DNA of 19,417 nt, taken from positions 1 to 19,417 of the forward strand of contig QKED01000030.1 in assembly GCA_003252455.1 (NCBI GenBank), written 5' to 3'. Made by a program: the position numbers and the translations under genes. Position 1 is the first letter of the stretch. Each line of letters begins with the position of its first letter. Source of the DNA: Gammaproteobacteria bacterium (lineage in GTDB: Bacteria > Pseudomonadota > Gammaproteobacteria > Thiohalomonadales > Thiohalomonadaceae). Shown in pieces: positions 4,077 through 18,522 of the stretch. The notes beneath the pieces are model-generated. The model was not told the origin of the DNA. It saw only the letters and a program-made list of their open reading frames with translations, and did not search any database.

Positions 4077-4088
4077 TTAATTTCCCTG

Positions 4089-5195
4089 TTATTGGTTGGT
4101 GTCTCTTGGTTTCGCATCGGCTAGGGTAGCTCGGAAGGCTTCCATTTCCACTGTACGGGAAGCCCAGGCAAAATCGACATCAGATATGGCCTGACGTGCA
4201 AGTGCGTTTAGCACCTTCGGTCGCGCGTCATCCATGTTATCAAGGTATTCTCGAAGTTCGTTAGATGGGCACTGCGCGGGCAATCGGTACGCGAAGCTTC
4301 CATCGCCCCGAATCTCGGCCAATTTGGCTGCAAGGTAATCGTAGCCCACGGCTTGCGCGTTCAAACTGGCCGCTATAGCCCGAAGCCCAAACTTCCACCC
4401 GCGTGCGCCTCGGTGTAAAGAACGGTTGCTTACCTCTTCGCCGCCTTGTGACGGTAACGTGCCAAGCATGAAAAGGTGAATCGGGCGATGTTCCCCGCGA
4501 TCATTCAGGATCTCGATCGCTTCAATCATTCCGATGAGTCCAGGGTTGTTGGCCCAGAGCCCTCCATCCACGTATGTTGCCGTTGCGCCCTTGCCACCGT
4601 GCTCGTCCAACCTTGCCATCGACCGGAGGATCGGCGCTGCGCTGGTGGCCATGCAAATATCGACTAGCGTCCTCCCATTGTCTCGTCCGTTTAGTCGTTT
4701 GAGATGTTGTGTCTTGAAAACCACCGCAGCATGACGATTGATGTCCAGTGTTGGCACAGCCAGTGCTATACCTCGCGAATCGTACATAGACTTGACGGTC
4801 ATATTGCCAAAAATAGTAGCGAGGGTACTCCGCAATGCATCATCGCCTTTGCGCAAACCGACGCCAACTCCCTTCAGGAACAGGCCGATAAATGGAAGTG
4901 ATCGCGCCCATTGCATAGGAAAAATCTTGGGGCCAGCCTTGGCATACAGAGATTGGATGTCTGGTAGTGGCACACCGGCAACTAATCCACACGCTACGAT
5001 CCCACCAGTACTGGTACCTACGATTAGGTCGAAAGCTGTGCCAATGTCTAGGGACTGTTGACGGTTTAGACTATCTTCAATGCGGTCTTCAAAGGTAGCG
5101 AGATAAGCCGACTGATATGCACCACGCATACCGCCACCGTCCAGACACAGTACTCGAAATGGTTTCGTTTCTGTCACGTCGCTCACTACTATCAA
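4089..5195 (-). CDS. capV: Patatin-like phospholipase, CBASS effector CapV-like
   Basis: The oxyanion motif LDGGGMRG and the nucleophile motif GTSTGG (GxSxG) are both present. The gene is the first in the operon and starts at a TTG. 368 aa. Confidence 0.88.
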   Translation of the reverse strand: MIVVSDVTETKPFRVLCLDGGGMRGAYQSAYLATFEDRIEDSLNRQQSLDIGTAFDLIVGTSTGGIVACGLVAGVPLPDIQSLYAKAGPKIFPMQWARSLPFIGLFLKGVGVGLRKGDDALRSTLATIFGNMTVKSMYDSRGIALAVPTLDINRHAAVVFKTQHLKRLNGRDNGRTLVDICMATSAAPILRSMARLDEHGGKGATATYVDGGLWANNPGLIGMIEAIEILNDRGEHRPIHLFMLGTLPSQGGEEVSNRSLHRGARGWKFGLRAIAASLNAQAVGYDYLAAKLAEIRGDGSFAYRLPAQCPSNELREYLDNMDDARPKVLNALARQAISDVDFAWASRTVEMEAFRATLADAKPRDTNQ

Positions 5196-5295: not shown

Positions 5296-5676
5296 CTACT
5301 TAGCCAACGCCACAGGCAGATACGGACTCTCCGGATTCACACTCAACTGCTGTGTAGCCGGATGCAACACCAAGTCCATCATCTCCATCGGCACCGCCCC
5401 CATGAGCGGCTCATCACCGAACACCAACGCCGAGAGGTCACAATAACGGTCACCAAAGTGGACACGCAGCGGTCCCACCATCGGTACCCGCTTGCGCGTA
5501 CCGTCGGCGAGAATCACCTCCCGCGTACTGAACTCCTCGGTGTCGTACCCGAGTTGCAAGGCCATGTGCTGTGGGATCACCATAAACACAGCCCCTGAGT
5601 CGACCAGCGACCGGACCTCGATTCGCCGACCGATAAAGCTGTTTTCCAGTGTTAAATTCGCGTAGGTCAAACCCAT
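5296..5676 (-). CDS. Retropepsin-like (clan AA) aspartic protease, paralog B
   Basis: 126 aa. The active-site motif is LVDSGAVFMV. The C-terminal stretch ALVFGDEPLMGAVPMEMMDLVL has the retropepsin character. About 45% identical to the adjacent paralog. Confidence 0.75.
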   Translation of the reverse strand: MGLTYANLTLENSFIGRRIEVRSLVDSGAVFMVIPQHMALQLGYDTEEFSTREVILADGTRKRVPMVGPLRVHFGDRYCDLSALVFGDEPLMGAVPMEMMDLVLHPATQQLSVNPESPYLPVALAK

Positions 5677-5716
5677 CAGTGGCCCCCTCTACAAAAGCCG
5701 AGCAACTACAACCTAA

Positions 5717-6097
5717 TCACTTCACCCGAGCATGCGGAATATTCGGACTCGCCGGGTCCACCCCCAGCTCCCTCCGCGCGGGATTGACCACCAGATCCAT
5801 ATCCTCCATCTGCACAGCCCCGAGCAGCACCTCATCACCCAGCACCAGAGCCCCGACATAACAGAAGCGGTCACCAAAGCGGACCTTGATCGGCCCGACA
5901 TAGGGCACCAGCAAACTCCGGCCATCGGCAACGCTCACTTCACGCTCAGATTCCGTCTCAAGTTGAAGCTGATTGGCGATGTGCTGCGGGATGCAGAGCA
6001 TCAATGCCCCCGTATCCGCTGGTGCCTGGGTACGGATAGGTGCCAGCGCTGCATCACGCGGGTTGCTCAGCTCGATGTTGGCGAACACATGACCCAT
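5717..6097 (-). CDS. Retropepsin-like (clan AA) aspartic protease, paralog A
   Basis: 126 aa. The active-site motif is ADTGALMLCIPQH. ALVLGDEVLLGAVQMEDMDLVV parallels the downstream paralog. Confidence 0.75.
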   Translation of the reverse strand: MGHVFANIELSNPRDAALAPIRTQAPADTGALMLCIPQHIANQLQLETESEREVSVADGRSLLVPYVGPIKVRFGDRFCYVGALVLGDEVLLGAVQMEDMDLVVNPARRELGVDPASPNIPHARVK

Positions 6098-6163
6098 GTC
6101 CGAATCCTCAGGTATACGCGTAGAGCCGAGTATAGGGTCGTGAAGGTGCCGATGTCATGCCCG

Positions 6164-9100
6164 TCACTCCTTCTTCCCCCGAATCCCCTTCAACCCCTGC
6201 TCAATCTGCTGCAACCGCTTCATCACCGCATCGCTCACAGAGTTCTTCTCGTGCAGCGAGCGCAGCATCGGCTTGAGCGAGAGGTCGACCACCTCGATGA
6301 GCTGTTCAACCAGGGTCTGCATGGCGGGCAGGGGTTCGTTGACCAGGTTGATCTCCGGCTGTTTGGCGCTCAGTGCCTCCAGCGTCTTGTTCAGCCGCTG
6401 CAGGTAGAGCACGGTGGCGCGGGCGTTGTAGCTCTCTTTCTCCAGGCGGGCGTCGTGGCCTTCGCTCATGCTGCGGGCGGCCTGATTGAGGGCCTCCAAC
6501 TGCTGCCCAAGCCCGGCGAGCTGGCCGGCGACGCGGGTGGCGGGGTCGTTTTCGTCGCCGATGACGGAGGCACGGCGGCGGTACTCCTGGGTGATGGCGT
6601 GCCAGCGCGCGGCCTGCTCGGGGGTCTGTTTGCCGCGCAGGGCGGCGAGCTTGAGCAGGTTCTCTTCGGCGCCGGTGGTGAGGGTCTGCGCCTCGCCGAT
6701 GTAGTGGTCGTCGATCAGCGCCTCCAGTTCGGCGTCGTTCATCACCGCCACCACCTTCTCGGCCATCTTGTTCATGTTGCGGTAGCTGCCCTGGAGCTTG
6801 AACGGCGGCTCGGTGCGGTAGGCGTCGTGCTGGCTGGCGGATTCGATGTAGGCGAGGTTGACCTTGAGCACGGTCTGCTGGATGCGCAGCAGTTTCTTCA
6901 GAACGTCGACGATCTCGGCCAGCTCGGCGGCGGAGTAGCCGTGGCCCAGTTCGTTGCTGGAGATCTCCTCGCCCTGGGCCATGCGGATTAGTTTGTAGAG
7001 GTCCTGCATGTCGCGGGTGGCGAGCGGGGCGAGGGTGGCGTTGGAGGTGAGGGCGTTCTCGATGTAGGAGAGGGCGAAGGCCTGCTCCTTGCCGCCGAGG
7101 ACGTCGCCGAGGTTGTAGATGTCGGCGCGGTTGGCGAGCATGTCGGGGATCTTGAACGCCTCGCCGGACTCGGTGTAGGGGTTGCCCGCCATGATGATGC
7201 AGAAGCGCTTGCCGCGCAGGTCGTAGCTGCGGCTGCGGCCGCGCCAGACCCCCTCGACACGGCGGGTGCCATCGGCCAGGGAGATGAACTTCTGCAGGAA
7301 CTCGGGGTTGGTGTGCTGGATGTCGTCGAGGTAGAGCATGACGTTGTTGCCCATCTCCAGCGCCAGGTTGAGCTTCTCCAGCTCCTGTTTGGCGGCGGCG
7401 CCGGGGGCCTCGACGGGGTCGAGGCCGGTGACGGCGTGGCCGATGGTGGGGCAGTTGATCTTCATGAAGATGAGCCCGAGGCGGTGGGCGGTGTACTCCA
7501 TGAGGGTGGTCTTGCCGTAGCCGGGCGGGGAGATGAGCAGCAGCATGCCCATCAGGTCGGTGCGCTTGGCGTCGCCCAGCGCCCCCATCTGCTTGGCCAG
7601 GTTGTCGCCGATGAGTGGCAGGTAGACCTCGTTGATCAGCTGGTTGCGCACGAAGCTGGTGAGTGGGCGCGGTTTGAACTCCTCAAGGCGTAGCGCCTCG
7701 CGCGCCTGCTCGGCCACCTCGCGGCGGCTCTGGCGGTAGGCGCGGAAGGCGGGCACGCGGGTGTGGCCGAACTGCTCCAGCCGCTGCAGGAACTCGTCCA
7801 GCTCCAGCACCAGGGTGCGCTCGACGATACGCGGGTGCTGGCCGAGCAGGCCGCCCACCTCGGCGCGGGTGAGGGTGGCGCTGGCCTGGTGGTCGAGGCG
7901 CCCCTCGGTGAGCAGCAGGGCGGTGGCGGCGGGGATGCGGCGGATGGCGTCCTCGCCCGCCCCGGTATGGCGCAGATACTGCTCCAGCCAGGCGCTGACC
8001 AGTTGGACCTGGTCGGCGAGGGACTCCTCCAGCGCCTCCAGGTCCTCCTCGAACTCGGCGCGGTGTCCGGCCTGCTCCAACTCGCGGCGCAGCCCGGCGA
8101 CCAGCTCCTCGGCCTCGTGGCTGGTGGTGAGGCGCAGCGGGTGCTGGCGCAGCTCGGCGATGAGATAGGCCCCGGCGAGGCGCTGCTCGCCCGCGTCGAA
8201 GTCGAGGCGCATCTCGCCACAGAAGGCGGCGAGCAGGCCGACCGCCTCCTCCACCAGCGCCAGCTCGGCGCGGTGGGCACCGAAGCGTCCGGCCAGTTGG
8301 CCGAGGCTGCGGGCACGGCGTTGCAGCCCCTGCGGCCCCTGCTCGGCCCAGTAGAGCCAGGCGAGGGCGCGCGGACGTGGGCCGAAGCGCAGCAGCCCGG
8401 CCCCGGCGTGCAGGTCGAGCAGGGCGGCGAGGATGGCGGCGGCGTCGACGTCGTGCACGCCGCGCTCGTAGCCCTCTTCGTAGCGCTCGGCGGCGGCCCT
8501 ACGCACCCGTTCGCGCAGGGCGTCGGGGTCCGCCGCCAGGGTGTGCAGCTCGGCCAGGGTGTCGCTGGCCTCGGCGGCGAACAGCAGGCTGGCGGCCAGG
8601 TACTCGGCGCGGTAGACGCTGGCGTCTTCCGATACGCGCTCCTGCTCCCAGTAGTCGCGGAAGGCGGCGAGGCGTTCGTCCTCCACCGGCTCGAAGAAAT
8701 CGGTGCCGGTGAGGTGCAGACTCATCCTGCCGTCGACCGGCAGCAGGGTGAGGTCGAGCGGGCTGGTGGTGACACTGAAGCGGTGCTTGCCCAGGCGGAT
8801 GACGTTGCCGCCCTCCTCGAAGATCTCGCTGCGGTCGCGCAGGGTGCGGCTCGACTGGTCGCGGGCCGACTTGAGGCGCGCCTCCACATCGTCGGCACGT
8901 ACGCTGTCGCCCAGTTCGCGCAGCCGTTCGACCAGCTCGCGCAGCTTGAGGATCATCGGATCGGCGGCAAAGTAGGCGTTGATGGCGTCCTGGTCGGAGA
9001 AGCCCTCGACCCTGCGCTCGACCCCCTGCAGGATGCGGTCGGCGGCGGCGGCCATGTTCTGCGCGCGGCGCTGGCGCTCCTCGTTGAGCTGCTGTTTGCG

Positions 9101-11371
9101 CGCCTCGAAGCTCTCGTAGACCTCCTCGCGCTTGGCGGTGAGCTGGGTCAGGTAGTCGTCGAACTCGCTGAAGCGCCCCTCCAGCTCTTCGAGTTGCAGC
9201 AGCAGGCGGGCGAGCTGTTCGTCGCACGCCTCCGGGGTGTCGGCCTGGGCCAGGGCGGCGGTGACCGACTGGCCGTAGAGCTTGAACTCGGCGGCGAACT
9301 CGGCCACCGACTCGTGGGAGCGCAGCCCCTTGCGCTTGAGCTTGAGTTCGGCGCGGGTACGGTTGAGGCGGGCGAAGACCTCGCCGACCCGCTCCAGGAT
9401 GGTGGTGCGCTGGGTGGCGTCCTCCACCTTGAGGCCGCCGAGCACCTCGTTGAGCAGCTCCAGCCCCTCCGCCTGCTGCTCCAGCGCCGCCTCGATGGGG
9501 TCGAGTTCGACCACCTTTTCCACCGCCTCGATGGCCGCGGCCTGGGCCTCCAGCTGCTGGTGGTAGGCGTCCAGCGCGTCGTCGCGCAGCAAAAAGTCGA
9601 CGCTCTGGCGCGAGAGGCGCTCGAAGGCCTCGACCACCTCCTGCTCCAGTTCGTCGAGACGTTTCAGGTCGATGCGGCGCAGGTCGCGCAGGGTGATGAG
9701 CTGGCCGCGCTGACCGCGCAGGTCGGCCAGGGCGGTGATGAAGGGGTCGATGCTGTGCCACGACTCCGGGCGTGTCTTGCGCAGCAGCTCCTGCTGGGCG
9801 AGGGCGGCCTGCTCCAGGGCGGTTGCGGCCTGCTTGCGCTGGGCGGCGACCTTCTCGAACTCTCCGAGCACCAGCTCGGCAGTGGCGCGCACCGCCTTGA
9901 CCGCCGGCAGCAGCGGGCCGGTCTCGGCCTGGTCGAGCCAGTGGTAGTGGTCGGCCATGCGCGTGCAGGCGGCGATGAGCGCCTCGTAGACGCCAACGGT
10001 GGGGCTGGCGCTGGTGACCATGCGGCGGATGGAGAGGGCGTCGGAGATGCCGCGCACCAGGTCGGCGTTGCCGATGCGCGCCAGCGGCGAGCCGTCGGTG
10101 GGGCGGGCGGCGGCGTGCTCGTCGCTCATGTAGGGCGTTTGCCAGATCTGCATCGGGTGGACGCGGGTCGGCTCATCTGAGTCGTAGCGGAAGACCACCA
10201 TGCGCCCGTCGTCGAACAGCGAGTAGCCGTGGCAGACGATGGGGTTGGCCAGCTGTTTGCGGATGAGGTTGTAGGAGAGCAGCTCCTGGCGCCCCTCCAT
10301 GTAGTGGTAGAAGAGGTAGAGCACATCCTCGCCGTTGGGCGAGCGGATGGTGCGCTTGTATTCGAGGTCGGTGATGTCGCCGTCGAACTGCTTGTGCTCG
10401 CCGCTCACCAGGTAGTAGCCGCCGGGGAAGATCAGGCCGTGCCCCTCGGGCAGCTGCACGCAGGCCTGGCCGATGGCGTCGATGCGCACCACCTGCTCGG
10501 TGCGGCTGTTAAACACCAGGTGGCGCCACACCTCCTCGCGATAGGGGCGGATGCGCAGCAGGATCAGCTCGCCGAGGTCGGCGTACTCGATCTGCGCGTC
10601 GGCCAGGGACTGATTGGCATCCTCCACCGGCTCTCGGTAGATGCCGAGGCCCGACTCTGTGTTGTTCTCCACCTTGATGGTGAGGTCGCCGCCCACGGTC
10701 TCGACGAACAGCCGCTCCTGGATCGAGACGTGGGGAAACTTGCCCGCCACATGATTATCGCGCGTGGTGGCGGTCCACTCGAAGTCGTGGGCGCGCGGGA
10801 AGGTGTGGTCGCGCTCGCCACGATTGTCGATGTAACTGACCTTGCCGTCGCGGTCGATGCCCCAACGGAAGACCTTGAAGTCGGCGCGGCGGCTGCCGGT
10901 CTGGAACACCGCGAGCAGCTTGCCGTCGAGCACACGCAGGGCGGTGAGGTAGGCCTCCTTGTAGTAGGCGTAGAGTTCGCGGAACTCCTTAACGAACTGC
11001 GGGTGGTCGAGGAAGGAGTCTTTCAGCGGCACCGACTCCACCTCGTAGCCGCCCTCGGCCTCCACCAGGCGGTTGAGGGAGAAGACGTCGCTCACCCGCG
11101 TCTCGGTCTTGAGGCCGATGAAGACGTTGTAGCCGAACAGCAGCAGCCCGCCCACCTGCACCATGTCGCGTGGCACGCAGTTGTTCTCGGTGCGCAGGCG
11201 CAGGGCACCGGTGACCGCCAGCTCCGTACCGCCGAAGAGTTTGAGGCGCTTTTCGTTGAGGCCGCTGGCGAGCTTGGCCAGCTCGCCGCCCTGGGTGGTG
11301 AGGCGCTGGCTCAGGAGTTCGTAGGCGCCGTCCTGGTCGAGGGTGGGCTCGGTGTTGTTGGCGTCGGTCAT
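6164..11371 (-). CDS. Giant (1735 aa) coiled-coil protein with one MoxR/AAA_5-type AAA+ ATPase module
   Basis: An uninterrupted 5.2-kb ORF at host GC. Walker A is LISPPGYGKTTL and Walker B is VMLYLDDIQ. The downstream segment RFCIIMAGNPYTESGEAFKIPDMLANRADIY follows the MoxR/dynein-like pattern ATQNP...LP.A.LDRF. Residues about 450-1200 are E/A/L/R/Q-rich and heptad-like, so predicted coiled coil. The N-terminal 440 aa is aromatic and beta-rich. Confidence 0.85.
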   Translation of the reverse strand: MTDANNTEPTLDQDGAYELLSQRLTTQGGELAKLASGLNEKRLKLFGGTELAVTGALRLRTENNCVPRDMVQVGGLLLFGYNVFIGLKTETRVSDVFSLNRLVEAEGGYEVESVPLKDSFLDHPQFVKEFRELYAYYKEAYLTALRVLDGKLLAVFQTGSRRADFKVFRWGIDRDGKVSYIDNRGERDHTFPRAHDFEWTATTRDNHVAGKFPHVSIQERLFVETVGGDLTIKVENNTESGLGIYREPVEDANQSLADAQIEYADLGELILLRIRPYREEVWRHLVFNSRTEQVVRIDAIGQACVQLPEGHGLIFPGGYYLVSGEHKQFDGDITDLEYKRTIRSPNGEDVLYLFYHYMEGRQELLSYNLIRKQLANPIVCHGYSLFDDGRMVVFRYDSDEPTRVHPMQIWQTPYMSDEHAAARPTDGSPLARIGNADLVRGISDALSIRRMVTSASPTVGVYEALIAACTRMADHYHWLDQAETGPLLPAVKAVRATAELVLGEFEKVAAQRKQAATALEQAALAQQELLRKTRPESWHSIDPFITALADLRGQRGQLITLRDLRRIDLKRLDELEQEVVEAFERLSRQSVDFLLRDDALDAYHQQLEAQAAAIEAVEKVVELDPIEAALEQQAEGLELLNEVLGGLKVEDATQRTTILERVGEVFARLNRTRAELKLKRKGLRSHESVAEFAAEFKLYGQSVTAALAQADTPEACDEQLARLLLQLEELEGRFSEFDDYLTQLTAKREEVYESFEARKQQLNEERQRRAQNMAAAADRILQGVERRVEGFSDQDAINAYFAADPMILKLRELVERLRELGDSVRADDVEARLKSARDQSSRTLRDRSEIFEEGGNVIRLGKHRFSVTTSPLDLTLLPVDGRMSLHLTGTDFFEPVEDERLAAFRDYWEQERVSEDASVYRAEYLAASLLFAAEASDTLAELHTLAADPDALRERVRRAAAERYEEGYERGVHDVDAAAILAALLDLHAGAGLLRFGPRPRALAWLYWAEQGPQGLQRRARSLGQLAGRFGAHRAELALVEEAVGLLAAFCGEMRLDFDAGEQRLAGAYLIAELRQHPLRLTTSHEAEELVAGLRRELEQAGHRAEFEEDLEALEESLADQVQLVSAWLEQYLRHTGAGEDAIRRIPAATALLLTEGRLDHQASATLTRAEVGGLLGQHPRIVERTLVLELDEFLQRLEQFGHTRVPAFRAYRQSRREVAEQAREALRLEEFKPRPLTSFVRNQLINEVYLPLIGDNLAKQMGALGDAKRTDLMGMLLLISPPGYGKTTLMEYTAHRLGLIFMKINCPTIGHAVTGLDPVEAPGAAAKQELEKLNLALEMGNNVMLYLDDIQHTNPEFLQKFISLADGTRRVEGVWRGRSRSYDLRGKRFCIIMAGNPYTESGEAFKIPDMLANRADIYNLGDVLGGKEQAFALSYIENALTSNATLAPLATRDMQDLYKLIRMAQGEEISSNELGHGYSAAELAEIVDVLKKLLRIQQTVLKVNLAYIESASQHDAYRTEPPFKLQGSYRNMNKMAEKVVAVMNDAELEALIDDHYIGEAQTLTTGAEENLLKLAALRGKQTPEQAARWHAITQEYRRRASVIGDENDPATRVAGQLAGLGQQLEALNQAARSMSEGHDARLEKESYNARATVLYLQRLNKTLEALSAKQPEINLVNEPLPAMQTLVEQLIEVVDLSLKPMLRSLHEKNSVSDAVMKRLQQIEQGLKGIRGKKE

Positions 11372-11444
11372 GGATTAGGTCTCCGCGGAGGCCGAGTGGG
11401 TGAAAGAATTAGTGCCCGCGTAGGACGGGCGTGGAGGCTATGGC

Positions 11445-12029
11445 TCACTCGGTGGACTCCGTGTCAGGCAGCTCCAGCCACGCGCTGACCGCGAAGGGTT
11501 GCTCGGGGCAGAGCGGCAGAGTCAGCTCGTCGCCTTGGCCGAAGATCGCGGGACGGGGGTAACGCCCCTCCTCCAGCCGGTAGTGCTCGATGTAGTTCTC
11601 CAGCGGGTCGACGATGAGGTAGTCGGGTACACCGAAGCGCTCGTAGAGGGCGAGTTTGTCGCGCCTGTCGCGTGTGGCGCTGCCGGGGGAGAGGATCTCG
11701 ATGACGAGGTTGGGGGCACCCGCGTGATATTGGCCGTTGACCCTACGCGACGGGTCGCAGCTCACGAGTATGTCTGGTTGGACGACTGTAGATTCGTCGA
11801 ACACAACATCGACTGGCCCTATTAAAACCTCGCAGACTCGGCCCATCCGCCGGAGGGCGAGGTCGAGTGAGACGGCGATCCGTCCAACCCTCAATTGGTG
11901 ACGAATGGAGGGTGTCGGAAAAGAGGGCAAAATCACTCCATTGATCACCTCGCGCGGGGTCTCGTCCTTCCCGCTCAGATAGTCGGCGACGGTATACCGT
12001 CCTTCAGCTAGCGCTTCGTGTGCGCACAT
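11445..12029 (-). CDS. Uma2-family (DUF820) PD-(D/E)xK putative endonuclease, copy 2
   Basis: 194 aa. VQPDILV...APNLVIEILSPGSATRDRRDKLALYERFGVPDYLIVDP matches the Uma2 pattern (PD..., EhLSPS, ...Y...GV.EYWhVD). Confidence 0.8.
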   Translation of the reverse strand: MCAHEALAEGRYTVADYLSGKDETPREVINGVILPSFPTPSIRHQLRVGRIAVSLDLALRRMGRVCEVLIGPVDVVFDESTVVQPDILVSCDPSRRVNGQYHAGAPNLVIEILSPGSATRDRRDKLALYERFGVPDYLIVDPLENYIEHYRLEEGRYPRPAIFGQGDELTLPLCPEQPFAVSAWLELPDTESTE

Positions 12030-12089
12030 GGGTGGCCTCCTGAGCGTGACCCCGGATGGCGCTGCGCCTATCCGGGCTACGGTGCTGGC

Positions 12090-12680
12090 TCATATCTCGA
12101 TCCCGCTCTCTTCTCGCTGACCAAACCAGGCGTGGATGGCCTGGGGCAGACCGGGGAGCAGCGCCAGTTCGAGGGGCGTGTCCGGGGTGAAGAGCATCGG
12201 ACGCGGATAACGCCCTGCCACGAGCCGGTGGTGGGCGAGGTAGTTGTTGTGGGGGTCGACTACCAGATACTCCTGCACGCCGAACTGTTCGTAGAGCTCC
12301 AGCTTCACCCCCAGGTCGCGCACGGCGGTGGCGCTGCCGAGCACCTCGACCACCAGTTCCGGGGCCCCGTCGAAGTAGCGTCCGTCGCGCACCCTGTCGC
12401 GTCGGCGGTCGACGATCAGGTCGGGTTGCAGCAGGGTCGCCTCGCCGAGCACCAGCTCCACCGGTCCCAGGCCGATATAGGCCGTCGACAGCGGGCCGTC
12501 CGTGGCCAACTGCAGACCGAGAAAGTGCTGATAGATGGCGAACACCACCTCCTGATGACGCACCTCCTGCGTGAAGGGGAGAGTGGATTGCACCCCGTCG
12601 ACCAGCTCGCAGTCGGGCGAACCGGGCCAACCGAGGTAGTCGGCGACGGTGAAGCGCACCGCGTGGCTGAGGTCGGGCAT
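12090..12680 (-). CDS. Uma2-family (DUF820) PD-(D/E)xK putative endonuclease, copy 1
   Basis: 196 aa. LQPDLIV...APELVVEVLGSATAVRDLGVKLELYEQFGVQEYLVVDP. Paralogous to the downstream copy. Confidence 0.8.
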   Translation of the reverse strand: MPDLSHAVRFTVADYLGWPGSPDCELVDGVQSTLPFTQEVRHQEVVFAIYQHFLGLQLATDGPLSTAYIGLGPVELVLGEATLLQPDLIVDRRRDRVRDGRYFDGAPELVVEVLGSATAVRDLGVKLELYEQFGVQEYLVVDPHNNYLAHHRLVAGRYPRPMLFTPDTPLELALLPGLPQAIHAWFGQREESGIEI

Positions 12681-12759
12681 CGGTATCTCCCGTACGGAGT
12701 GCGATCCGGTCGGTGTTTATCGCGAAGTGGAGTACACGCCGAGGCGTGTACTCCAGGAG

Positions 12760-14745
12760 TTACTCCAGGCCGAGCTGCTTGGCCGCGGCGAGCAGGCGCT
12801 CCACCTTGGCCTTCTCATCCCCATCAGAGCCCTGCATCAGCTTGCCGAGGAAGGCGGTGAGGGTAAGGTTCTTCGCTGCCTCGGCGTCGATGGCCGGGTT
12901 GGTCAGCACGTCCTTCAGGTCCTGGCGCAGGCTGGCGTCGCCGTCGATGTAGTCACCGAAGATCTGCTTGGCGGTGTCGCCCTTCTCCAGGAAGCCGTCG
13001 AGCGACTTGGTGACCGAGACCGCCTTGACGAAGCGGTCGAAGAAGGCGCCGTCGCCGCCGATGATCTCGAACTTGGCGTTCTTCAGTGCGCTGCCGAGGA
13101 GCTGGGCCTGCTGCTCGGCCACGGCGCGCTGGGTGAGCAGCGCCTCGCCCTGCAGGGCGCGCACGTGTTCGAGCTTCATGCGGAACTGCTCGTAGGCCTC
13201 GCCACGGTCGCCCATCTGCTCCATCGCGGCGGTCTCGCTCTCCAGCACCTTGACCCGCGCCATGCCGATCTGCTCCTCGCCCTCGGCCTCGGCCTGCTTC
13301 TGCTCGCGCAGCACGCGCGCCTGGGCGGTGCCCTCTTTCTCCAGGGCGACGGCACTCGCCTCTTTCACGCGGGCGGCAGCAAGGCCATGCGCGGCGGCCT
13401 CGGCCTGGGTGCCCTCGGCGATGCGGATCTTGGCGGCGGCCAGCTTGTCGGCGGCGGCCAGCTCGGCCTCGGCCAGGGTGAGCTGCTCACGGGCCTTGTG
13501 CTTGGCGGCCTCCTCGGCGGCCTCGGCTGCCTTGATCGACTCGACCAGGTTCTGCTGCGCGGCGGCCTCGGCCTCGATCACCTTGGCCTTGCGGCTGCGG
13601 TCCGCCTCGGAGACGATGCGCAGCTCCTTGATGCGCTCCTCCTCCTCGGCCACGGTCTTGTCCACGGCGGTACGCTCGCGGATCACCTCGGCGATGGCCT
13701 TCTTCTCCTCCTCCAGCGCCTTCTCCTTGGCGATGCGCTGCAGCTCCACCTCGCGTTCGCGGGCGATCGCCTCCAGGGCGCGGGCGCGCTCGACCTTCTC
13801 CACCTCGATGGCCACGGCGCGGGCGCGGTTCTGCGCCGCCACCTCGGTCTCGCGCAGCTTGTTCTCCTCCATCACCGCGAGGGACTCGTCGGTCTTGATG
13901 CGCGCCTGCTCGGAGCGCAGGCGCTCCTCGCTGCGCACCTTCTCGGTCTCGGCCTCTTCGCGGGCGCGCAGGGATTCGATCTCGCGCTGCTGCTTCGCCT
14001 CGGCGTCCGCCTGCTGGCGTTCGAGCTCCAGGATCGCCTCACGCGCCTGCACATCCTTCTTCTTGATCTGCATCTCTTCGTCGCGGGCGATCTCGTTGGT
14101 CTGGATGTTCTGCGTGGCGGTGAGCTGGGTGATCTTGCGGATGCCCTGGGCGTCGAGGATGTTCTTCGGGTCGAGGCTGGAGAGGGGGGTCTGCTCCAGG
14201 TAGTCGATGGCGGCGTCTTCGAGCACGTAGCCGTTCAGGTCCTTGCCGATGAGGGCGATGATCTGGTCGCGGAAGCTGTCGCGCTCCTTGTACAGGTCCT
14301 CGAAGTCCATCTGCTTGCCGACGGTCTTCAGCGCCTCGGAGAACTTGGCGTTGAACAGCTCTTCGAGGGTCGACTGGTCGGAGGCGCGGGCGCAGCCGAT
14401 GGCCTGGGCCACCTTGAGCACGTCCTCCTGGGTCTTGTTCACACGCACGAAGAAGGAGACGCGGATGTCGGCGCGGATGTTGTCGGAGCAGATCAGCCCC
14501 TCCTTGCCGCGACGGTCGATCTCGATGGTCTTGAGCGAGATCTCCATCACCTCGGCCTTGTGGATCACCGGGTAGACGACCATGCCGGTGAAGGTGACCA
14601 CCGGCTCCTTGCGCATAGTGTTGACGATGAGCGCCTTACCTTGTTCCACCTTCTTGTGGAACATGAATACCAGCAGGGCGATACCGCCGACGATGAAGAC
14701 GAGGATGCCGAGCACGCTCAGGATCACATACCAGATGGAACTCAT
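12760..14745 (-). CDS. yqiK: Flotillin-family SPFH-domain protein (YqiK-like)
   Basis: 661 aa. An N-terminal TM helix is followed by an SPFH/band-7 domain (KALIVNTMRKEPVVTFTGMVVYPVIHKAEVMEISLKTIEI...). A long E/A/R/K-rich flotillin-type coiled coil follows. It sits immediately downstream of the YqiJ-like gene. Confidence 0.9.
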   Translation of the reverse strand: MSSIWYVILSVLGILVFIVGGIALLVFMFHKKVEQGKALIVNTMRKEPVVTFTGMVVYPVIHKAEVMEISLKTIEIDRRGKEGLICSDNIRADIRVSFFVRVNKTQEDVLKVAQAIGCARASDQSTLEELFNAKFSEALKTVGKQMDFEDLYKERDSFRDQIIALIGKDLNGYVLEDAAIDYLEQTPLSSLDPKNILDAQGIRKITQLTATQNIQTNEIARDEEMQIKKKDVQAREAILELERQQADAEAKQQREIESLRAREEAETEKVRSEERLRSEQARIKTDESLAVMEENKLRETEVAAQNRARAVAIEVEKVERARALEAIAREREVELQRIAKEKALEEEKKAIAEVIRERTAVDKTVAEEEERIKELRIVSEADRSRKAKVIEAEAAAQQNLVESIKAAEAAEEAAKHKAREQLTLAEAELAAADKLAAAKIRIAEGTQAEAAAHGLAAARVKEASAVALEKEGTAQARVLREQKQAEAEGEEQIGMARVKVLESETAAMEQMGDRGEAYEQFRMKLEHVRALQGEALLTQRAVAEQQAQLLGSALKNAKFEIIGGDGAFFDRFVKAVSVTKSLDGFLEKGDTAKQIFGDYIDGDASLRQDLKDVLTNPAIDAEAAKNLTLTAFLGKLMQGSDGDEKAKVERLLAAAKQLGLE

Positions 14746-14763
14746 TGCGGGTCTCCTTGAGTT

Positions 14764-15396
14764 TTAGGGTCCGTCGTAGGGGGCCACCGCATAAGTGTCG
14801 GCGGCGGAGTCGTAGTCGATGATGAGCAGGGGGTCGCCACGCTTGAGGCCGTTCTCCTCGATATGGCAGGTGACGCTGAGGATGAGGTCGTTACCGCCCT
14901 GTTCATAGCGCGCCTGTCCATGCGTCTGGCCGACGCTGCCGGAGGTGAGGGTACAGAGTTTACCCACCAGTGTCTGTTTGCTGTCGGCGCCGTGCACGGC
15001 GAAAAACGGGCGCAGTGGCACGACGGCACGCCCGGCCAGCGGCAGGGCGATGACGAAGGCGGCGATGCCGACCGCCAAACCGGCCATGCCGCCGAACGGG
15101 CCCGGCAGCCAGGGCAGCAGGTAGAGGTTGGCCAGCAGGCTGAGCAACCAGGCGATGAGCACGACAAAGCTGAAGATGATGGCGATGGGCACCCCGGTGA
15201 GGCCGAGGGCGGCCATCATCCCGGCGAGGGTGTCGCCACGCCACAGGGGGGCACCCTCCAGGTCGATGTCGGCCCCGAACAGGTCGATGTCGAAGAAGCC
15301 GAGGATGACGAAGAGCCAGTAGATCAGCACCAGCGCCAGCAGGGCCGAGTAGAGGCCGGTGGGGAGGGCAATCAGGGCGTGAAGAAAGGGCTCCAT
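14764..15396 (-). CDS. yqiJ: YqiJ/NfeD-like inner-membrane protein (flotillin partner)
   Basis: Multiple hydrophobic helices. The C-terminal soluble part (GKLCTLTSGSVGQTHGQARYEQGGNDLILSVTCHIEENGLKRGDPLLIIDYD) resembles the NfeD OB-fold. The ORF is open to 15489. I prefer the ATG at 15396 (MEPFLH...), which has a GGAG 6 nt upstream. Confidence 0.65.
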   Translation of the reverse strand: MEPFLHALIALPTGLYSALLALVLIYWLFVILGFFDIDLFGADIDLEGAPLWRGDTLAGMMAALGLTGVPIAIIFSFVVLIAWLLSLLANLYLLPWLPGPFGGMAGLAVGIAAFVIALPLAGRAVVPLRPFFAVHGADSKQTLVGKLCTLTSGSVGQTHGQARYEQGGNDLILSVTCHIEENGLKRGDPLLIIDYDSAADTYAVAPYDGP

Positions 15397-15501
15397 GGGC
15401 GTCTCCATGCTTTGTGCGGGGCCGTTAGCGCCGGGCGCTGACCGGCCATCAGGCCACAGCCCCGGGAGGGCGTCAAGCACGCCCCGCACAAAAGGCGTGC
15501 A

Positions 15502-16437
15502 CTAGCCTCGTTGGGCGAAGGCAAGGGAGAAGGCGCGTGGCCCGACGTTCACCGCGGCCGTGGTGCTCATCAGGCTGAGCAGCAGGTCGACCCCGCGCGC
15601 CTGGGCGGCGTTGACGAAGTCGATATAGTGACTATTGGCGCGGATCTCCTCCAGGTCACCCCCATAGCTCATGGCCACCAGTGGGGTGACGAGCCCCTGG
15701 TCGATCGCCTCCAGGGTGCGGGCAAAGAGGCGCTGCAGGGCGGCATCGAAGCCGGCGGCCTTGAACGCGGGTTCGGTGACACCGCGATAGCACTGCACCA
15801 CCGGCTTGACGTTGAGCAGGTTGCCCACCTTGTAGCTGAACCAACCGACGCTGTTGTCGCCCTTCTCACGGGCACGCGCGTGCAGGTAATAGAGGTCACG
15901 CGGTACGACATAGGCGTAGACCTGGTCGGCCAGGGCGGCGAGGCGCGGCTCCAGCCGCTCCAGCTCCAGCCCCTCGTCGCGCAGCAGGCGTACCGCCTCG
16001 TGGGCGATGATCGCCTGGCCGGTAAACATGGTGGTGCTGTTGAACACGCGCAGGCGAAACTGGCTGGAGCCGGTCACGTCGCGGTGCAGCGCCTTGAGCT
16101 TGGGCAGCTTGATCAGCGCCGCTTCGCGGACGTTGTCGTAGATCTTGCTGCGCTCGGCGTTGATGGTGATCACCTGGGTGCCGTCGTAGTGGTGCAGCAG
16201 CTCCTCTTCGAGGATGGTGCTCATCTCGTCCACCGTCAGCGGGCTGGTCTGCACCAGGCCATCCTTGTGGTTGCCATAGTAGGCGTAGAAATCGAGGGTG
16301 GTCTTGGGGTCGCGAAAATCGCGGAAGATCTGCCCGTCGATCAACACCGTGATAGGTAGTACCTTGACGTTGTTCGCGACGATAAACGGGTGTGGCAGGT
16401 CGCAGGCCGAATCCACGGCGATACAGTAGTTGGGCAT
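15502..16437 (-). CDS. degV: DegV-family (EDD-fold, fatty-acid-binding) protein
   Basis: The N-terminal motif YCIAVDSACDLP matches the DegV signature (IAIVTDStaDLP). The ORF is open to a GTG at 16464. The preferred ATG at 16437 has an AAGGAC Shine-Dalgarno 6 nt upstream. Confidence 0.8.
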   Translation of the reverse strand: MPNYCIAVDSACDLPHPFIVANNVKVLPITVLIDGQIFRDFRDPKTTLDFYAYYGNHKDGLVQTSPLTVDEMSTILEEELLHHYDGTQVITINAERSKIYDNVREAALIKLPKLKALHRDVTGSSQFRLRVFNSTTMFTGQAIIAHEAVRLLRDEGLELERLEPRLAALADQVYAYVVPRDLYYLHARAREKGDNSVGWFSYKVGNLLNVKPVVQCYRGVTEPAFKAAGFDAALQRLFARTLEAIDQGLVTPLVAMSYGGDLEEIRANSHYIDFVNAAQARGVDLLLSLMSTTAAVNVGPRAFSLAFAQRG

Positions 16438-16501
16438 GCTCAGGTCCTTAGGCCTTATCGGCACAGACCGGGCGGACAGCGCGACCCGCTGAGCGCCTCG
16501 G

Positions 16502-17976: not shown

Positions 17977-18522
17977 TCACAGCTCCCGGTCCATCTCGTG
18001 CAGGGGGGCCGACTCCGGGTGGTTGCGCAGCACCTGCCACGCCCGGAGCGCCTGACTCACCCCTTGAGTGATCAACAGCACCCCCATCAACGGGATGACC
18101 CCCTTGAGCAGCCAGACCAGGGGCAGTCCACCGGTCTCGCGCGACCCCTCCAGCAGGGCCCAACTATTGGCCACATAGCCCCAGCTCACCCAGATGATGA
18201 AGAGTGCGAAGGGGATGAGCAGCAACAGGGTCCCGAGCAGGTCGACCAGGGCCTGCCCCTTGGGGCCGAGGCGGTTGTAGATGAGGTCCACGCGCACATG
18301 GCCATCGTGGCGCAGGGTATAGCCCATCGCCAGCATGAAGACGGCTGCATGCATGTAGATCACAGTTTCTTGCAGGGCGATGGAGCCGCTGTTGAATAAA
18401 TAGCGCAGCGCCACGATTAGCAGGGTAACGAGAACCATTCCTAGTGTTAACCAGGCGATGGTACGCCCGATCCACTCACTCACTGCATCCAGTCTGGAGG
18501 TCAACTTATCTAAGGAAAACAT
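17977..18522 (-). CDS. dctQ: TRAP transporter small permease subunit (DctQ family)
   Basis: 181 aa with 4 predicted TM helices (AWLTLGMVLVTLLIVALRYL...). Immediately upstream of dctM on the same strand. Confidence 0.85.
   Translation of the reverse strand: MFSLDKLTSRLDAVSEWIGRTIAWLTLGMVLVTLLIVALRYLFNSGSIALQETVIYMHAAVFMLAMGYTLRHDGHVRVDLIYNRLGPKGQALVDLLGTLLLLIPFALFIIWVSWGYVANSWALLEGSRETGGLPLVWLLKGVIPLMGVLLITQGVSQALRAWQVLRNHPESAPLHEMDREL

Follow-up and report, generated by a model that had tools for sequence, protein, structure and literature searches.

A conserved YqiJ-like/flotillin/ATPase operon and its probable nuclease and protease passengers

The seven-gene string at positions 5296-15489 of the window, the complete 19.4-kb contig of 14 genes analysed here, is probably a composite of three unrelated layers: a three-gene operon (YqiJ-like membrane protein, flotillin, giant ATPase), two Uma2 nuclease genes in tandem, and two tandem genes for retropepsin-like proteases. 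We are highly confident that the trio constitutes a conserved operon, the same one that Ravi et al. 2024 described computationally in mSystems (PMC11237479). The two pairs are very probably unrelated insertions and are read as lineage-specific passengers, since they co-occur with the trio at 0 of 165 related loci, GC3 is deviant in three of the genes, their relatives are solitary elsewhere, and other insertions are found at the same spacer. An earlier note had joined all seven genes into one module and could not say whether it had been described; the core trio is already known computationally, and the seven-gene machine does not appear to be real.

Results

Layout and composition of the locus

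Seven consecutive open reading frames on the minus strand were confirmed, and the family assignments made earlier (flotillin, Uma2 twice, AAA+, clan-AA protease twice) were all upheld by profile scans. The string and the neighbouring island comprise the following.

14764-15489, minus strand: YqiJ/YuaF-like inner-membrane protein, first gene of the trio; open reading frame with three TM helices and a C-terminal OB-like β domain
12760-14745, minus strand: flotillin-like SPFH protein, 661 aa, second gene of the trio (Pfam Band_7, E 2.8e-8)
12090-12680, minus strand: Uma2-family PD-(D/E)xK nuclease, 196 aa, first of the tandem pair (Pfam Uma2, E 6.2e-21; PADLOC PDC-S03, E 4.5e-19)
11445-12029, minus strand: Uma2-family nuclease, 194 aa, second of the tandem pair (Pfam Uma2, E 9.3e-31)
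6164-11371, minus strand: β-propeller, coiled-coil and AAA+ ATPase, 1735 aa, third gene of the trio (Pfam DUF3686, E 8.4e-210; DUF7902, E 1.7e-29; AAA_5; AAA)
5717-6097, minus strand: clan-AA retropepsin-like aspartic protease of the AF_0612/TIGR03698 type, 126 aa (TIGR03698, 62.0 bits; DTGA motif)
5296-5676, minus strand: paralogous clan-AA aspartic protease, 126 aa (Pfam Asp_protease_2, 26.4 bits, cut-off 24.3; DSGA motif)
821-5195, minus strand: type II CBASS island, in the order patatin effector, CD-NTase, Cap2 E1/E2 and a fourth open reading frame in the Cap3 position

The intergenic gaps within the string are 18, 79, 60, 73, 66 and 40 nt, read from the YqiJ-like gene (14764-15489) to the last protease (5296-5676). 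The same-strand arrangement, correctly reported before, carries no weight, because all 14 genes on the contig share one strand. No strong terminator was found between any of the seven genes, the sole terminator-like match being a weak one in the Uma2-to-ATPase spacer; co-transcription of the passengers with the operon is thus possible, and so is a degree of functional coupling in this lineage. GC3 is 0.94 in the flotillin and ATPase genes and 0.86-0.94 in the core genes overall. It lies below the core in three of the four nuclease and protease genes (0.75 in the second Uma2 gene, 0.68 and 0.72 in the proteases at 5717-6097 and 5296-5676), the first Uma2 gene (0.85) being almost core-like. The window contains neither PspA nor YjfI, and the genes upstream of the string encode DegV and a TRAP transporter. 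[quoted passage not shown]

Our comparison set consisted of 165 homologous ATPase loci, 85 from genomes and look-up and 80 from metagenomes, which are the best-scoring matches from two collections and not a random sample. Enough upstream sequence for evaluation was present at 139 of them (79 and 60, respectively). Flotillin orthologues, 44-66% identical, lie directly upstream of the ATPase gene and on the same strand at 133 of these 139 loci (76 of 79 and 57 of 60). The distance from flotillin stop to ATPase start has a median of 70 nt and is at most 300 nt in 66 of 78 loci, with overlapping genes in 13 of the 78. By tblastn the YqiJ-like gene was found at 72 of the 85 genome/look-up loci and 54 of the 80 metagenome loci, directly upstream of flotillin in those tabulated. 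In the genome-derived subset, for which the multi-phylum spread was established, the trio occurs in Pseudomonadota (Pseudomonas, Xanthomonadaceae, Pseudoalteromonas), Myxococcota, Actinomycetota (many genera) and Acidobacteriota. This shared arrangement supports a functional link between the YqiJ-like/flotillin pair and the giant AAA+ protein.

Further genes recur around the trio: DUF2170 (YjfI) and PspA_IM30 upstream in about 40 loci, and PLDc_2 and TelA downstream in 18 and 14 loci, respectively. These partners are envelope-stress genes. Ravi et al. report the same three architectures, including 'Betapropeller+Coiled-coil+AAA-ATPase', together with a CesT/Tir-PspA dyad, PLD and "abbreviated operons" (PMC11237479). 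In their full gammaproteobacterial operon a CesT/Tir-like YjfI and a homologue of PspA precede the trio, and a PLD hydrolase often or sometimes follows it; the "abbreviated" forms are widespread. The DUF2170/PspA and PLD accessories were recovered independently in our loci, and the trio in the window corresponds to the "abbreviated" form of this PSP-associated operon.

The flotillin has an N-terminal TM segment, a Band-7 domain and a long Glu/Ala-rich coiled coil, and is 28% identical to E. coli YqiK across 440 aa (E 2e-36). Neither the YqiJ-like protein nor any of 29 orthologues matches a Pfam model; its tie to E. coli YqiJ is by profile-profile comparison only (hhalign, 93%, E 3e-7) and spans TM2-3 and the C-terminal domain. 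Its true start is likely the Met at 15408. The relationship of the pair to yqiJ-yqiK as noted before thus holds, but 'canonical' was too strong a word for it.

Four nucleotides past the flotillin stop codon the spacer forms a hairpin.

12728-12755, minus strand: GC-rich stem-loop with a 12-bp perfect stem and no U-tract

The spacer folds with an MFE of -34.5 kcal/mol (z -5.0), a stability reached in 0 of 200 shuffles. Of the 43 loci tested, 16, counting the window, have a hairpin with z < -2.5 at this position, and in each of them the spacer measures at least 40 nt. The stem-loop probably serves the operon as a conserved attenuator or as a hairpin that stabilises its mRNA.

The giant ATPase combines a propeller-like domain with an AAA+ module

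More than 6000 homologues of the ATPase exist. The closest overall is 61% identical, and the lineage is poorly sampled. The protein bears the NCBI name 'DNA repair ATPase', and source names also include 'ATPase involved in DNA repair'. Two regions stand out.

9941-11284, minus strand: DUF3686 region, aa 30-477; β-rich propeller-like domain clasped by helices
6572-7639, minus strand: AAA+ module, about aa 1245-1600; Walker A GYGKTT, Walker B LYLDDIQH, sensor-1 Asn1397 and conserved Arg1415

The AAA+ module had been pictured as embedded in about 800 aa of coiled coil, a description that misses the first ~480 aa, which form a β-rich propeller-like domain and a helical bundle (N-terminal model, pLDDT 90). 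The best Foldseek matches of this model are β-propeller proteins, yet with low TM-scores (0.2-0.3). The AAA+ motif residues do not vary across 12 diverse homologues. As Walker B reads DD and not DE, hydrolysis may be slow or regulatory. With the AF2 model of aa 850-1735 (pLDDT 84), the best Foldseek matches to the AAA+ fold were MoxR-type NorQ/CbbQ (E ~2e-5, TM 0.5-0.57 to the target), followed by RuvB, Lon and Skd3. The E-values of the MoxR, RuvB, Lon and ClpB-type matches all fall within one log, and a sequence search pointed faintly to classical AAA proteins, not to MoxR; the assignment to the MoxR type made earlier is therefore weakly supported.

The NCBI and Pfam names, the weak resemblance of the coiled coil to that of SMC-like LmuB (PADLOC, E 2.6e-6) and the adjoining nuclease genes in the window might suggest that the large protein is a DNA-repair ATPase working on DNA with the Uma2 enzymes. 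We consider this the least credible of all readings. The protein has no SMC/Rad50 head, its single nucleotide-binding domain being an AAA+ fold; Pfam detects no DNA-binding domain in it, and the structure models of the N-terminus and the AAA+ part resemble no folds other than propeller and AAA+ ones. Moreover, its near-universal partners are membrane proteins, the adjacency to Uma2 nucleases is unique to this contig, and no mention of DUF3686 was found in the literature searched.

Uma2 and protease pairs as probable passengers

The two Uma2 nucleases share 42% identity and sit between the flotillin and ATPase genes, downstream of the post-flotillin hairpin. The proteases are 49% identical to each other, have intact DTGA and DSGA motifs, and lie between the operon and the CBASS island; with TIGR03698 scores of 62.0 and 53.9 bits, one of the two passes the cut-off of 57.35. 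No Uma2 gene and no retropepsin-like protease gene was found near the trio at any of the 165 related loci. In agreement, no adjoining Uma2 or aspartyl-protease gene was called at locus L095, whose ATPase (59% identity) is the closest examined relative that keeps the trio.

The neighbourhoods were traced for relatives of one gene from each pair, the nuclease at 11445-12029 and the protease at 5296-5676. The closest relative of this nuclease among 5.8 billion proteins is only 51% identical, and those examined are solitary genes, within EPS and T2SS clusters; Uma2 genes were also seen inside a cmr operon. The best 119 of 653 relatives of the protease are 71-83% identical, and those examined are again solitary, lying in operons for aromatic amino acids, in toxin-antitoxin islets and even in CRISPR cmr operons of Synechocystis. 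Both families, Uma2 and AF_0612-type, thus look like small genes prone to lodge between the genes of unrelated operons. In other lineages the flotillin-ATPase spacer has received different genes: two of the PDDEXK_2 family at locus L077, and at L052 an MNT/HepT pair along with genes for a hydrolase and an NYN protein; a Zn-ribbon protein is also among the cargo. The Uma2 gene at 12090-12680, absent from the 165 loci, is not part of the conserved operon.

A single machine of all seven genes, in which the scaffold senses damage, the AAA+ protein transduces the signal and the Uma2 and retropepsin proteins serve as effectors or processing enzymes, would fit the co-orientation and short gaps (18-79 nt), the weakness of the only terminator-like match, the similarity of Uma2 to the PADLOC defence candidate PDC-S03 and the adjoining CBASS genes. 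The comparative data go against it and already refute it in large part, and we regard it as highly improbable. The combination recurs at none of the 165 loci, no gene of either family was called beside the trio at L095, both families are solitary in unrelated operons, three of the four extra genes deviate in GC3, strand is uninformative, and a promoter-like site precedes the proteases. What stands of the module proposed earlier is the trio. Likewise, the suggestion that the retropepsins replace the ClpP-like protease of STOPP-type NfeD systems finds no support, as they show no co-occurrence with the trio at all.

6129-6158, minus strand: sigma-70-like promoter match, ATGACA-18-TATACT, in the ATPase-to-protease spacer

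This match is the only one in 12.8 kb, where shuffles average 1.4, and is thus weak evidence; it is possibly the protease pair's own promoter.

Alternatively, the Uma2 pair may have been inserted and then domesticated, being co-transcribed and used, for instance, as a heterodimeric nuclease that is set free when the membrane is damaged. The nearly host-like GC3 of the first gene (0.85) suggests long residence, both copies retain motifs that we take for the catalytic D...E core of Uma2, the hairpin before the ATPase gene is only weakly terminator-like, and L077 independently holds a tandem PD-(D/E)xK pair in the same spacer. However, the arrangement occurs once, the spacer takes unrelated cargo too (toxin-antitoxin pairs, hydrolase, Zn-ribbon protein), and the presence of Uma2 genes within EPS, T2SS and cmr operons fits opportunistic insertion. 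We thus deem domestication unlikely and retain the passenger reading.

The CBASS island is an independent neighbour

PADLOC identified the patatin effector (E 2e-93), the cyclase (E 2e-142) and the Cap2 E1-E2 protein (E 6e-170), the fourth open reading frame (821-1339) being assigned by position only. With a GC3 of 0.49-0.61 the island has a foreign composition compared with the core (0.86-0.94), in line with the earlier view that it was horizontally acquired; it is an independent neighbour. No CBASS genes were found in the 8-10 kb flanks of the 165 other loci, and the adjacency is seen here only.

Defence systems often contain giant coiled-coil ATPases, and were the trio itself an anti-phage or abortive-infection system, this would account for its defence neighbourhood and for the nuclease and toxin-antitoxin insertions, which occupy the operon spacer in three lineages. 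The adjoining type II CBASS and the weak LmuB match point the same way. Type II CBASS has also been linked to PspA, to which Cap2 conjugates the cyclase (PMC11153139). Yet PADLOC offers no model for either the flotillin or the YqiJ-like protein, the genes that recur beside the trio are those for PspA, YjfI, PLD and TelA, CBASS is confined to this locus, and the flanks examined (L001, L002 and L095) hold ordinary metabolic and cell-division genes, not defence islands. A defence role for the trio is accordingly improbable, and the sensor/effector machine of the earlier note finds no backing in envelope-stress partners of this kind.

Discussion

The locus is best described by the three layers named at the outset. 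The first would be an ancient operon running from a YqiJ/YuaF-like 3TM-OB protein through a flotillin to a giant soluble ATPase; a tandem Uma2 pair would have landed in the flotillin-to-ATPase spacer, and a tandem AF_0612-type protease pair between the operon and the CBASS island. From gene context and domain analogy we tentatively suggest that the trio could serve the ATP-driven remodelling of flotillin/PspA scaffolds. The flotillin would oligomerise at the inner membrane, on the cytoplasmic side, and the OB domain of the YqiJ-like protein would act as the NfeD-like partner of the flotillin. The ATPase would dock via its propeller and coiled coil and, at the expense of ATP, build up, remodel or take apart the flotillin scaffold, as well as the PspA scaffold where there is one, during envelope stress. 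Its proposed role would resemble that of Vps4 acting on ESCRT-III, or of FtsH inside the HflK/C cage.

Gene content of the window

The 19,417-bp window is an entire contig, and all of its 14 sizeable genes are encoded on the minus strand. Seven of them, from the YqiJ-like gene to the second protease gene, had been singled out in an earlier note as one string. Its coordinates and family calls proved right, since Pfam, NCBIfam and PADLOC confirm the families.

Features of the window in order of transcription (coordinates, strand, assignment)
17977-18522, minus, TRAP DctQ, first in transcription order
16593-17975, minus, TRAP DctM
15502-16464, minus, DegV
14764-15489, minus, YqiJ-like membrane protein of 241 aa (profile comparison with E. 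coli YqiJ)
12760-14745, minus, flotillin (Pfam Band_7, E 2.8e-8, residues 32-180)
12728-12755, minus, GC-rich stem-loop with a 12-bp stem and no U-tract, 4 nt after the flotillin stop (z -5.0)
12090-12680, minus, putative Uma2 nuclease, first copy (Pfam PF05685)
11445-12029, minus, putative Uma2 nuclease, second copy (Pfam PF05685)
6164-11371, minus, 1735-aa ATPase (Pfam DUF3686, DUF7902 and AAA)
5717-6097, minus, putative 126-aa clan-AA protease, first copy (TIGR03698, DTGA motif)
5296-5676, minus, putative 126-aa clan-AA protease, second copy (Asp_protease_2, DSGA motif)
821-5195, minus, type II CBASS: patatin, CD-NTase, Cap2 and a fourth ORF in the Cap3 position (PADLOC; fourth ORF by position only)

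The intergenic gaps inside the string measure 18, 79, 60, 73, 66 and 40 nt. GC3 is 0.86-0.94 in the core genes (YqiJ-like protein, flotillin and ATPase), 0.85 and 0.75 in the first and second Uma2 copies, 0.68 and 0.72 in the two protease genes and 0.49-0.61 in the CBASS genes. The sole sizeable plus-strand ORF that is not overshadowed by a longer minus-strand gene (18765-19253, 162 aa) encodes a product with a weak AP2-domain match under the cut-off (E 3.7e-4). GC falls to 0.57 around this ORF, and the end of the contig may here carry a further foreign segment.

Three of the seven genes form a conserved unit

The window was compared with 165 loci carrying a homologous ATPase gene (80 species-representative genomes, 80 metagenomes and 5 individual look-ups), which are the best-scoring ATPase matches and not a random sample. 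Each locus was searched with every protein of the window and counted as evaluable if it offered at least 2.5 kb of upstream sequence. A flotillin orthologue lies upstream on the same strand in 76 of the 79 evaluable loci of the genome and look-up set and in 57 of the 60 evaluable metagenome loci, which substantiates the proposed tie between the flotillin pair and the AAA+ protein. The YqiJ-like gene was found by tblastn in 126/165 loci, directly upstream of the flotillin gene in those tabulated. From flotillin stop to ATPase start the median distance is 70 nt; it is at most 300 nt in 66/78 loci, and the genes overlap in 13/78. The trio of YqiJ-like protein, flotillin and ATPase is thus shown to be a conserved, often translationally coupled unit. 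It is also widespread: the ATPase has more than 6000 homologues (53-61% identical among the best 120 listed), and the loci come from several phyla, those from genomes including Pseudomonas, Xanthomonadaceae, Pseudoalteromonas, Myxococcota, many actinomycete genera and Acidobacteriota.

No Uma2, retropepsin-like or CBASS gene was detected in any of the 165 loci. In locus L095, whose ATPase (59% identity) is the closest among the relatives examined with an intact trio, gene calling placed neither a Uma2 nor an aspartyl-protease gene alongside; the nearest sequenced relatives of the window organism are distant. The earlier proposal that the seven closely spaced, co-oriented genes constitute a single machine is contradicted by this 0/165 count, and we regard it as very improbable. 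What appeared to be a string of proteins never seen together dissolves on neighbourhood comparison into three genes of seven that belong together, and this trio is already in the literature.

The first two genes had been called a canonical yqiJ-yqiK pair, which holds for their homology but not for the adjective. The YqiJ-like protein and 29 orthologues match no Pfam family, YqiJ and NfeD included, and family membership could therefore be established only by profile-profile comparison, in which the 30-sequence profile aligned with E. coli YqiJ over 131 columns (hhalign probability 93%, E 3e-7). A PDB profile search with the same alignment returned nothing meaningful. The gene directly precedes that of the flotillin, which is 28% identical to E. 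coli YqiK (BLASTP, E 2e-36); its sequence shows a hydrophobic stretch at the N-terminus as well as an EA-rich coil, and the Pfam 'Flot' C-terminal model does not match it. The pair is accordingly homologous but divergent. Both E. coli yqiJ-yqiK and B. subtilis yuaF-floT (yuaG) resemble the window in placing a membrane partner of the NfeD/YqiJ type before a flotillin, and the flotillins of all three share an N-terminal anchor, an SPFH domain and an EA-rich coiled coil. In contrast to the window, E. coli has no ATPase gene downstream; as the earlier note had it, none of the downstream genes of the string is present there, and yqiK is followed by sib/ibs loci and hldE.

The trio matches a described PSP-associated operon

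Ravi, Anantharaman, Aravind, Gennaro et al. (mSystems 2024; PMC11237479) described, in a purely computational study, an operon that in the parts of the article available to us agrees with the window trio in all three protein architectures, in gene order, as also laid out in its supplement, and in strand. The same parts note PLD in some Proteobacteria and explicitly allow 'abbreviated' operons without the CesT/Tir-PspA dyad. According to AlphaFold2 models with Foldseek, Pfam and hhalign, the window carries a Band_7/flotillin gene, a gene for a 3TM protein of the YqiJ/YuaF type directly upstream and a gene for a propeller plus AAA+ ATPase, the last parted from the flotillin gene by a 1.39-kb Uma2 insertion. 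Unlike the full operon of these passages, the window has no PspA, YjfI or PLD. The CesT/Tir (YjfI/DUF2170)-PspA dyad is absent from the contig, where DegV and TRAP DctQM lie upstream, and we therefore assign the locus to the abbreviated class. The two Uma2 genes in the flotillin-to-ATPase spacer and the two clan-AA protease genes downstream are extras unreported in the passages seen.

Recurrent neighbours were obtained by all-against-all clustering of the ORFs of the genome loci. DUF2170 (YjfI) and PspA/IM30 genes occur upstream of the YqiJ-like gene in 20 genome and 20 metagenome loci, and a PLD-like (PLDc_2, HKD) hydrolase follows the ATPase in 10 genome and 8 metagenome loci, the PLDc_2 carriers being Pseudomonas and relatives (for example loci L011, L014, L019, L020, L029 and L036). 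The survey thereby reproduces the accessory genes named in the available parts of the article (YjfI/DUF2170, PspA and PLD). A TelA (toxic anion resistance) gene lies downstream in 8 Xanthomonadaceae genome loci (L047, L049, L056, L064, L066, L067, L074 and L080) and 6 metagenome loci, a link that does not figure in the passages of Ravi et al. at hand. The window locus is a member of a known, computationally described operon, bearing passenger genes and situated beside an unrelated CBASS island.

Passenger genes and the flotillin-to-ATPase spacer

Of 43 loci tested, 16, counting the window, have a hairpin (z < -2.5) comparable in position to the stem-loop behind the window flotillin gene, and in all 16 the spacer is at least 40 nt long (among them L020, L038, L014, L004, L029, L079 and L047). 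A few bear U-tails (L016, L058), and in some hairpin-bearing loci the ATPase gene follows directly. A consensus scan turned up one weak terminator-like hairpin between the Uma2 and ATPase genes and one promoter-like site between the ATPase and protease genes, neither class of match exceeding the counts expected from shuffled sequence. Transcriptional separation had been put forward as a sign of chance adjacency; the terminator-like hairpin is weak and the one after flotillin recurs in relatives, so that the latter does not indicate fortuitous neighbours. This hairpin may act as a conserved attenuator or stabiliser that would keep flotillin more abundant than ATPase.

The Uma2 pair sits downstream of this hairpin, and other loci carry different genes in the same spacer: two tandem PDDEXK_2 (Rpn-like) genes in a zetaproteobacterial MAG (L077:8006-9906), an alpha/beta hydrolase, an NYN protein and an MNT/HepT toxin-antitoxin pair in Lampropedia (L052:6476-9917), a TFIIB-type Zn-ribbon protein in Massilia and Aquabacterium (L075:9351-9884 and L078:8448-9014) and an 80-aa TerB/EF-hand-like ORF in several Pseudomonas and Lysobacter loci (for example L036:9611-9853). 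This recurrence suggests that the flotillin-to-ATPase spacer is a preferred landing site for foreign cargo. Two features may be new, namely a hairpin conserved directly after the flotillin gene and the repeated use of the spacer behind it for insertion of small nuclease, toxin-antitoxin and other genes.

By profile score and motifs, both passenger pairs are ordinary members of their families, Uma2/DUF820 and TIGR03698 (AF_0612-type). The Uma2 genes, whose family suggests a nuclease role, pass Pfam PF05685 (gathering cut-off 27) with 75.1 and 107.1 bits and match the PADLOC single-gene candidate PDC-S03. The protease at 5717-6097 passes TIGR03698 with 62.0 bits (cut-off 57.35); that at 5296-5676 stays just under it with 53.9 bits and passes Pfam Asp_protease_2 (26.4 versus 24.3). 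A DTGA and a DSGA motif are present in the two proteases. We know of no demonstrated function for either family, and a literature search on AF_0612-type (TIGR03698) clan AA aspartic proteases found nothing relevant.

Neighbourhoods were traced for one gene of each pair, the protease at 5296-5676 and the Uma2 gene at 11445-12029. The window harbours diverged tandem pairs (Uma2 42%, proteases 49% identity), whereas the relatives examined are single genes. One protease relative stands between tyrA and an MNT-type nucleotidyltransferase gene in an aromatic amino-acid operon, and another adjoins Unstab_antitox/HicB genes; no relatives were found on viral contigs. For the second Uma2 copy even the nearest relative reaches only 51% identity; the solitary relatives examined are located in an EPS cluster with many toxin-antitoxin pairs and in the interval separating djlA from T2SS genes. 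Protease homologues 40-44% identical to 5296-5676 reside on Synechocystis plasmids (locus L100, pSYSA 83501-83881; L101, a PCC 7338 plasmid), where, in opposite orientation, they separate cmr4 from cmr3 within a type III-B CRISPR cmr operon; the PCC 7338 cmr operon also holds a Uma2 gene between cmr3 and cas10. The same two families of small genes are thus embedded in another operon. We conclude that both window pairs are lineage-specific insertions; domestication of the Uma2 pair in this lineage appears unlikely.

The 126-aa AF_0612-type family is unusually conserved: the best 119 of 653 matches to 5296-5676 (P0122-P0240) are 71-83% identical and nearly all 126 aa long, their sources being labelled Thiodictyon, Kentrum and Desulfobulbus or being among many metagenomes. 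The homologues lie mostly on short contigs.

A protease role for the retropepsins had been suggested by analogy with STOPP-type operons, in which a long NfeD protein with a ClpP-like protease is paired with a stomatin (P. horikoshii PH1510/PH1511). Like the window, these place an SPFH gene beside one for an NfeD-like OB-domain membrane protein; unlike the STOPP-type NfeD with its ClpP-like domain, the window YqiJ-like protein is short and no protease domain was detected in it. The substitution finds no comparative support, because retropepsin-like genes, present in 0/165 loci, are not conserved partners of the trio.

The neighbouring CBASS island

The type II CBASS beside the string, reported in the earlier note, is real: PADLOC identifies its cyclase (E 2e-142), E1-E2 protein (E 6e-170) and phospholipase effector (E 2e-93), the ORF at 821-1339 being put in the Cap3 slot by position only. 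The retropepsin genes were considered as a part of this island and rejected, their GC3 of 0.68-0.72 lying between island and core and their relatives never adjoining CBASS. A tRNA scan and a search for long direct repeats on either side of the CBASS/protease region yielded neither a tRNA nor convincing att-like repeats. The non-coding DNA downstream of the last CBASS ORF is rich in repeats (326-456 and 611-664): a 45-nt segment at 326-370 is duplicated exactly and in tandem at 371-415, an 18-mer (consensus TGACCCCGATATTTCGCG) occurs four times, twice exactly and twice with a single mismatch, and two 23-nt arms form a perfect palindrome (611-633/642-664). These repeats might mark an end of the island, or serve as iterons or as a regulatory array.

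The string had been read as a sensor/effector machine, possibly related to stress, the envelope or phages. PADLOC-DB 2.0 contains no match for the YqiJ-like protein or the flotillin, and the ATPase resembles only LmuB there, weakly and within coiled coil (E 2.6e-6, residues 562-874); the protease at 5296-5676 matches PDC-M52B over about 40 residues only (E 7e-4). The recurrent partners of the trio in the neighbour survey are envelope-stress proteins, which argues against a defence system, and we consider a defence role of the trio improbable. The patatin effector of CBASS attacks membranes, and one might imagine that a Uma2 heterodimer and the retropepsin pair, co-transcribed with the flotillin-AAA+ machine, have been co-opted for immunity as effectors or processing enzymes that respond to membrane damage alongside CBASS, a scenario to which we give very little credence. 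We hold it likelier that the spacer after the flotillin hairpin may be a preferred landing pad for small selfish nuclease, toxin-antitoxin and protease genes. If so, Uma2 and AF_0612 proteases would represent a class of operon-invading mobile genes.

A connection between CBASS and PSP is known from another species, in which Cap2 conjugates a CBASS cyclase to PspA (Kruger et al. 2024; PMC11153139), and this conjugation restrains the cyclase. The adjacency of a type II CBASS (821-5195) and a PSP-linked operon (12760-15489) is found in 0/165 other loci, and since it is unique to this contig, it is probably a coincidence.

Architecture of the 1735-aa ATPase

The ATPase had been described as an AAA+ module embedded in coiled coil, a picture that the models do not support, as the protein is not mostly coiled coil. 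In the AlphaFold2 model of residues 1-520 (pLDDT 90), about 30 beta strands are clasped by helices, and the top Foldseek matches are beta-propeller proteins (E 6e-7 to 1e-4) with low TM-scores, so that the N-terminal domain is predicted to be beta-rich and propeller-like. For residues 850-1735 (pLDDT 84), the model shows a single AAA+ module together with a small beta domain, a helical domain and a helical hairpin at the C-terminus.

The designation of this module as MoxR-type, like its placement in any AAA+ clade, is tentative. Its nearest solved folds are NorQ (E 1.9e-5) and CbbQ (E 7e-5 to 1e-4), with TM-scores of 0.5-0.57 to the target, but RuvB, Lon and Skd3 give Foldseek E-values in the same decade. 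Pfam assigns AAA_5 (E 1.1e-6), and a PDB sequence search with the whole ATPase produced marginal matches only (Rix7, NVL, Msp1 and Cdc48, E 0.18-0.54), thus weakly favouring classical AAA proteins. MoxR chaperones (NorQ-NorD, CbbQ-CbbO, RavA-ViaA) provide the nearest solved AAA+ folds, and JGI labels some homologues 'MoxR-like ATPase'; the window ATPase differs from MoxR proteins in its 14-17% sequence identity to them, its roughly sixfold larger size and its Walker B DD. Neither the Pfam-annotated neighbourhoods that were examined nor the characterised clusters of recurrent neighbours showed a gene for a VWA-domain partner.

Across diverse homologues, Walker A (GYGKTT), Walker B (LYLDDIQH), the sensor-1 Asn and a conserved Arg do not vary, and by these motifs the nucleotide-binding site is intact. 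The Walker B Asp-Asp (D1349-D1350, window 7322-7327) is invariant across the family. The usual Walker B is Asp-Glu; the Asp-Asp form, which resembles DnaA, may entail slow or switch-like ATP hydrolysis.

Public databases name the protein 'DNA repair ATPase' or 'ATPase involved in DNA repair', names that are without support in these data, and a DNA-repair function is in our judgement extremely improbable. A literature search found no paper mentioning DUF3686 and no experimental work on the ATPase. S. oneidensis SO1376/SO1377 was examined as the source of the label and rejected: it is a plain yqiJ-yqiK pair that ends in a terminator, unlike the ATPase-bearing operon of the window, and no ATPase is mentioned in the paper. 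The word 'ATPase' is absent from a P. aeruginosa SPFH survey (PMC13086221), whose accessible passages deal with other SPFH loci.

Proposed mechanism and comparison with known systems

From the composition of the trio we propose that flotillin, together with the OB domain of the YqiJ-like protein, would form oligomeric scaffolds on the cytoplasmic face of the membrane, to which the ATPase may be recruited via its propeller and coiled coil. There it would spend ATP to assemble, remodel or disassemble flotillin, and PspA where present. Such ATP-driven remodelling is a serious possibility that we put forward tentatively. Were it correct, the ATPase would be the missing energy-dependent partner for flotillin research, as the trio pairs flotillin with a dedicated giant AAA+ ATPase.

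In HflK/HflC-FtsH, ESCRT-III/Vps4 and PspA/PspF, a membrane scaffold polymer is likewise coupled genetically or physically to a hexameric AAA+ protein; the likeness to the trio is one of functional analogy and not of kinship. An ESCRT-like parallel for PspA-AAA+ associations is drawn by Ravi et al. in the available parts of their article (PMC11237479). The window ATPase has neither the protease domain of FtsH nor the MIT domain of Vps4 nor the sigma-54 activator domain of PspF. It is instead a soluble protein of 1735 aa that combines a propeller with an extended coiled coil, and a putative interaction partner of flotillin. If the ATPase does remodel flotillin or PspA scaffolds, it would constitute a bacterial counterpart of Vps4/ESCRT-III or FtsH/HflKC.
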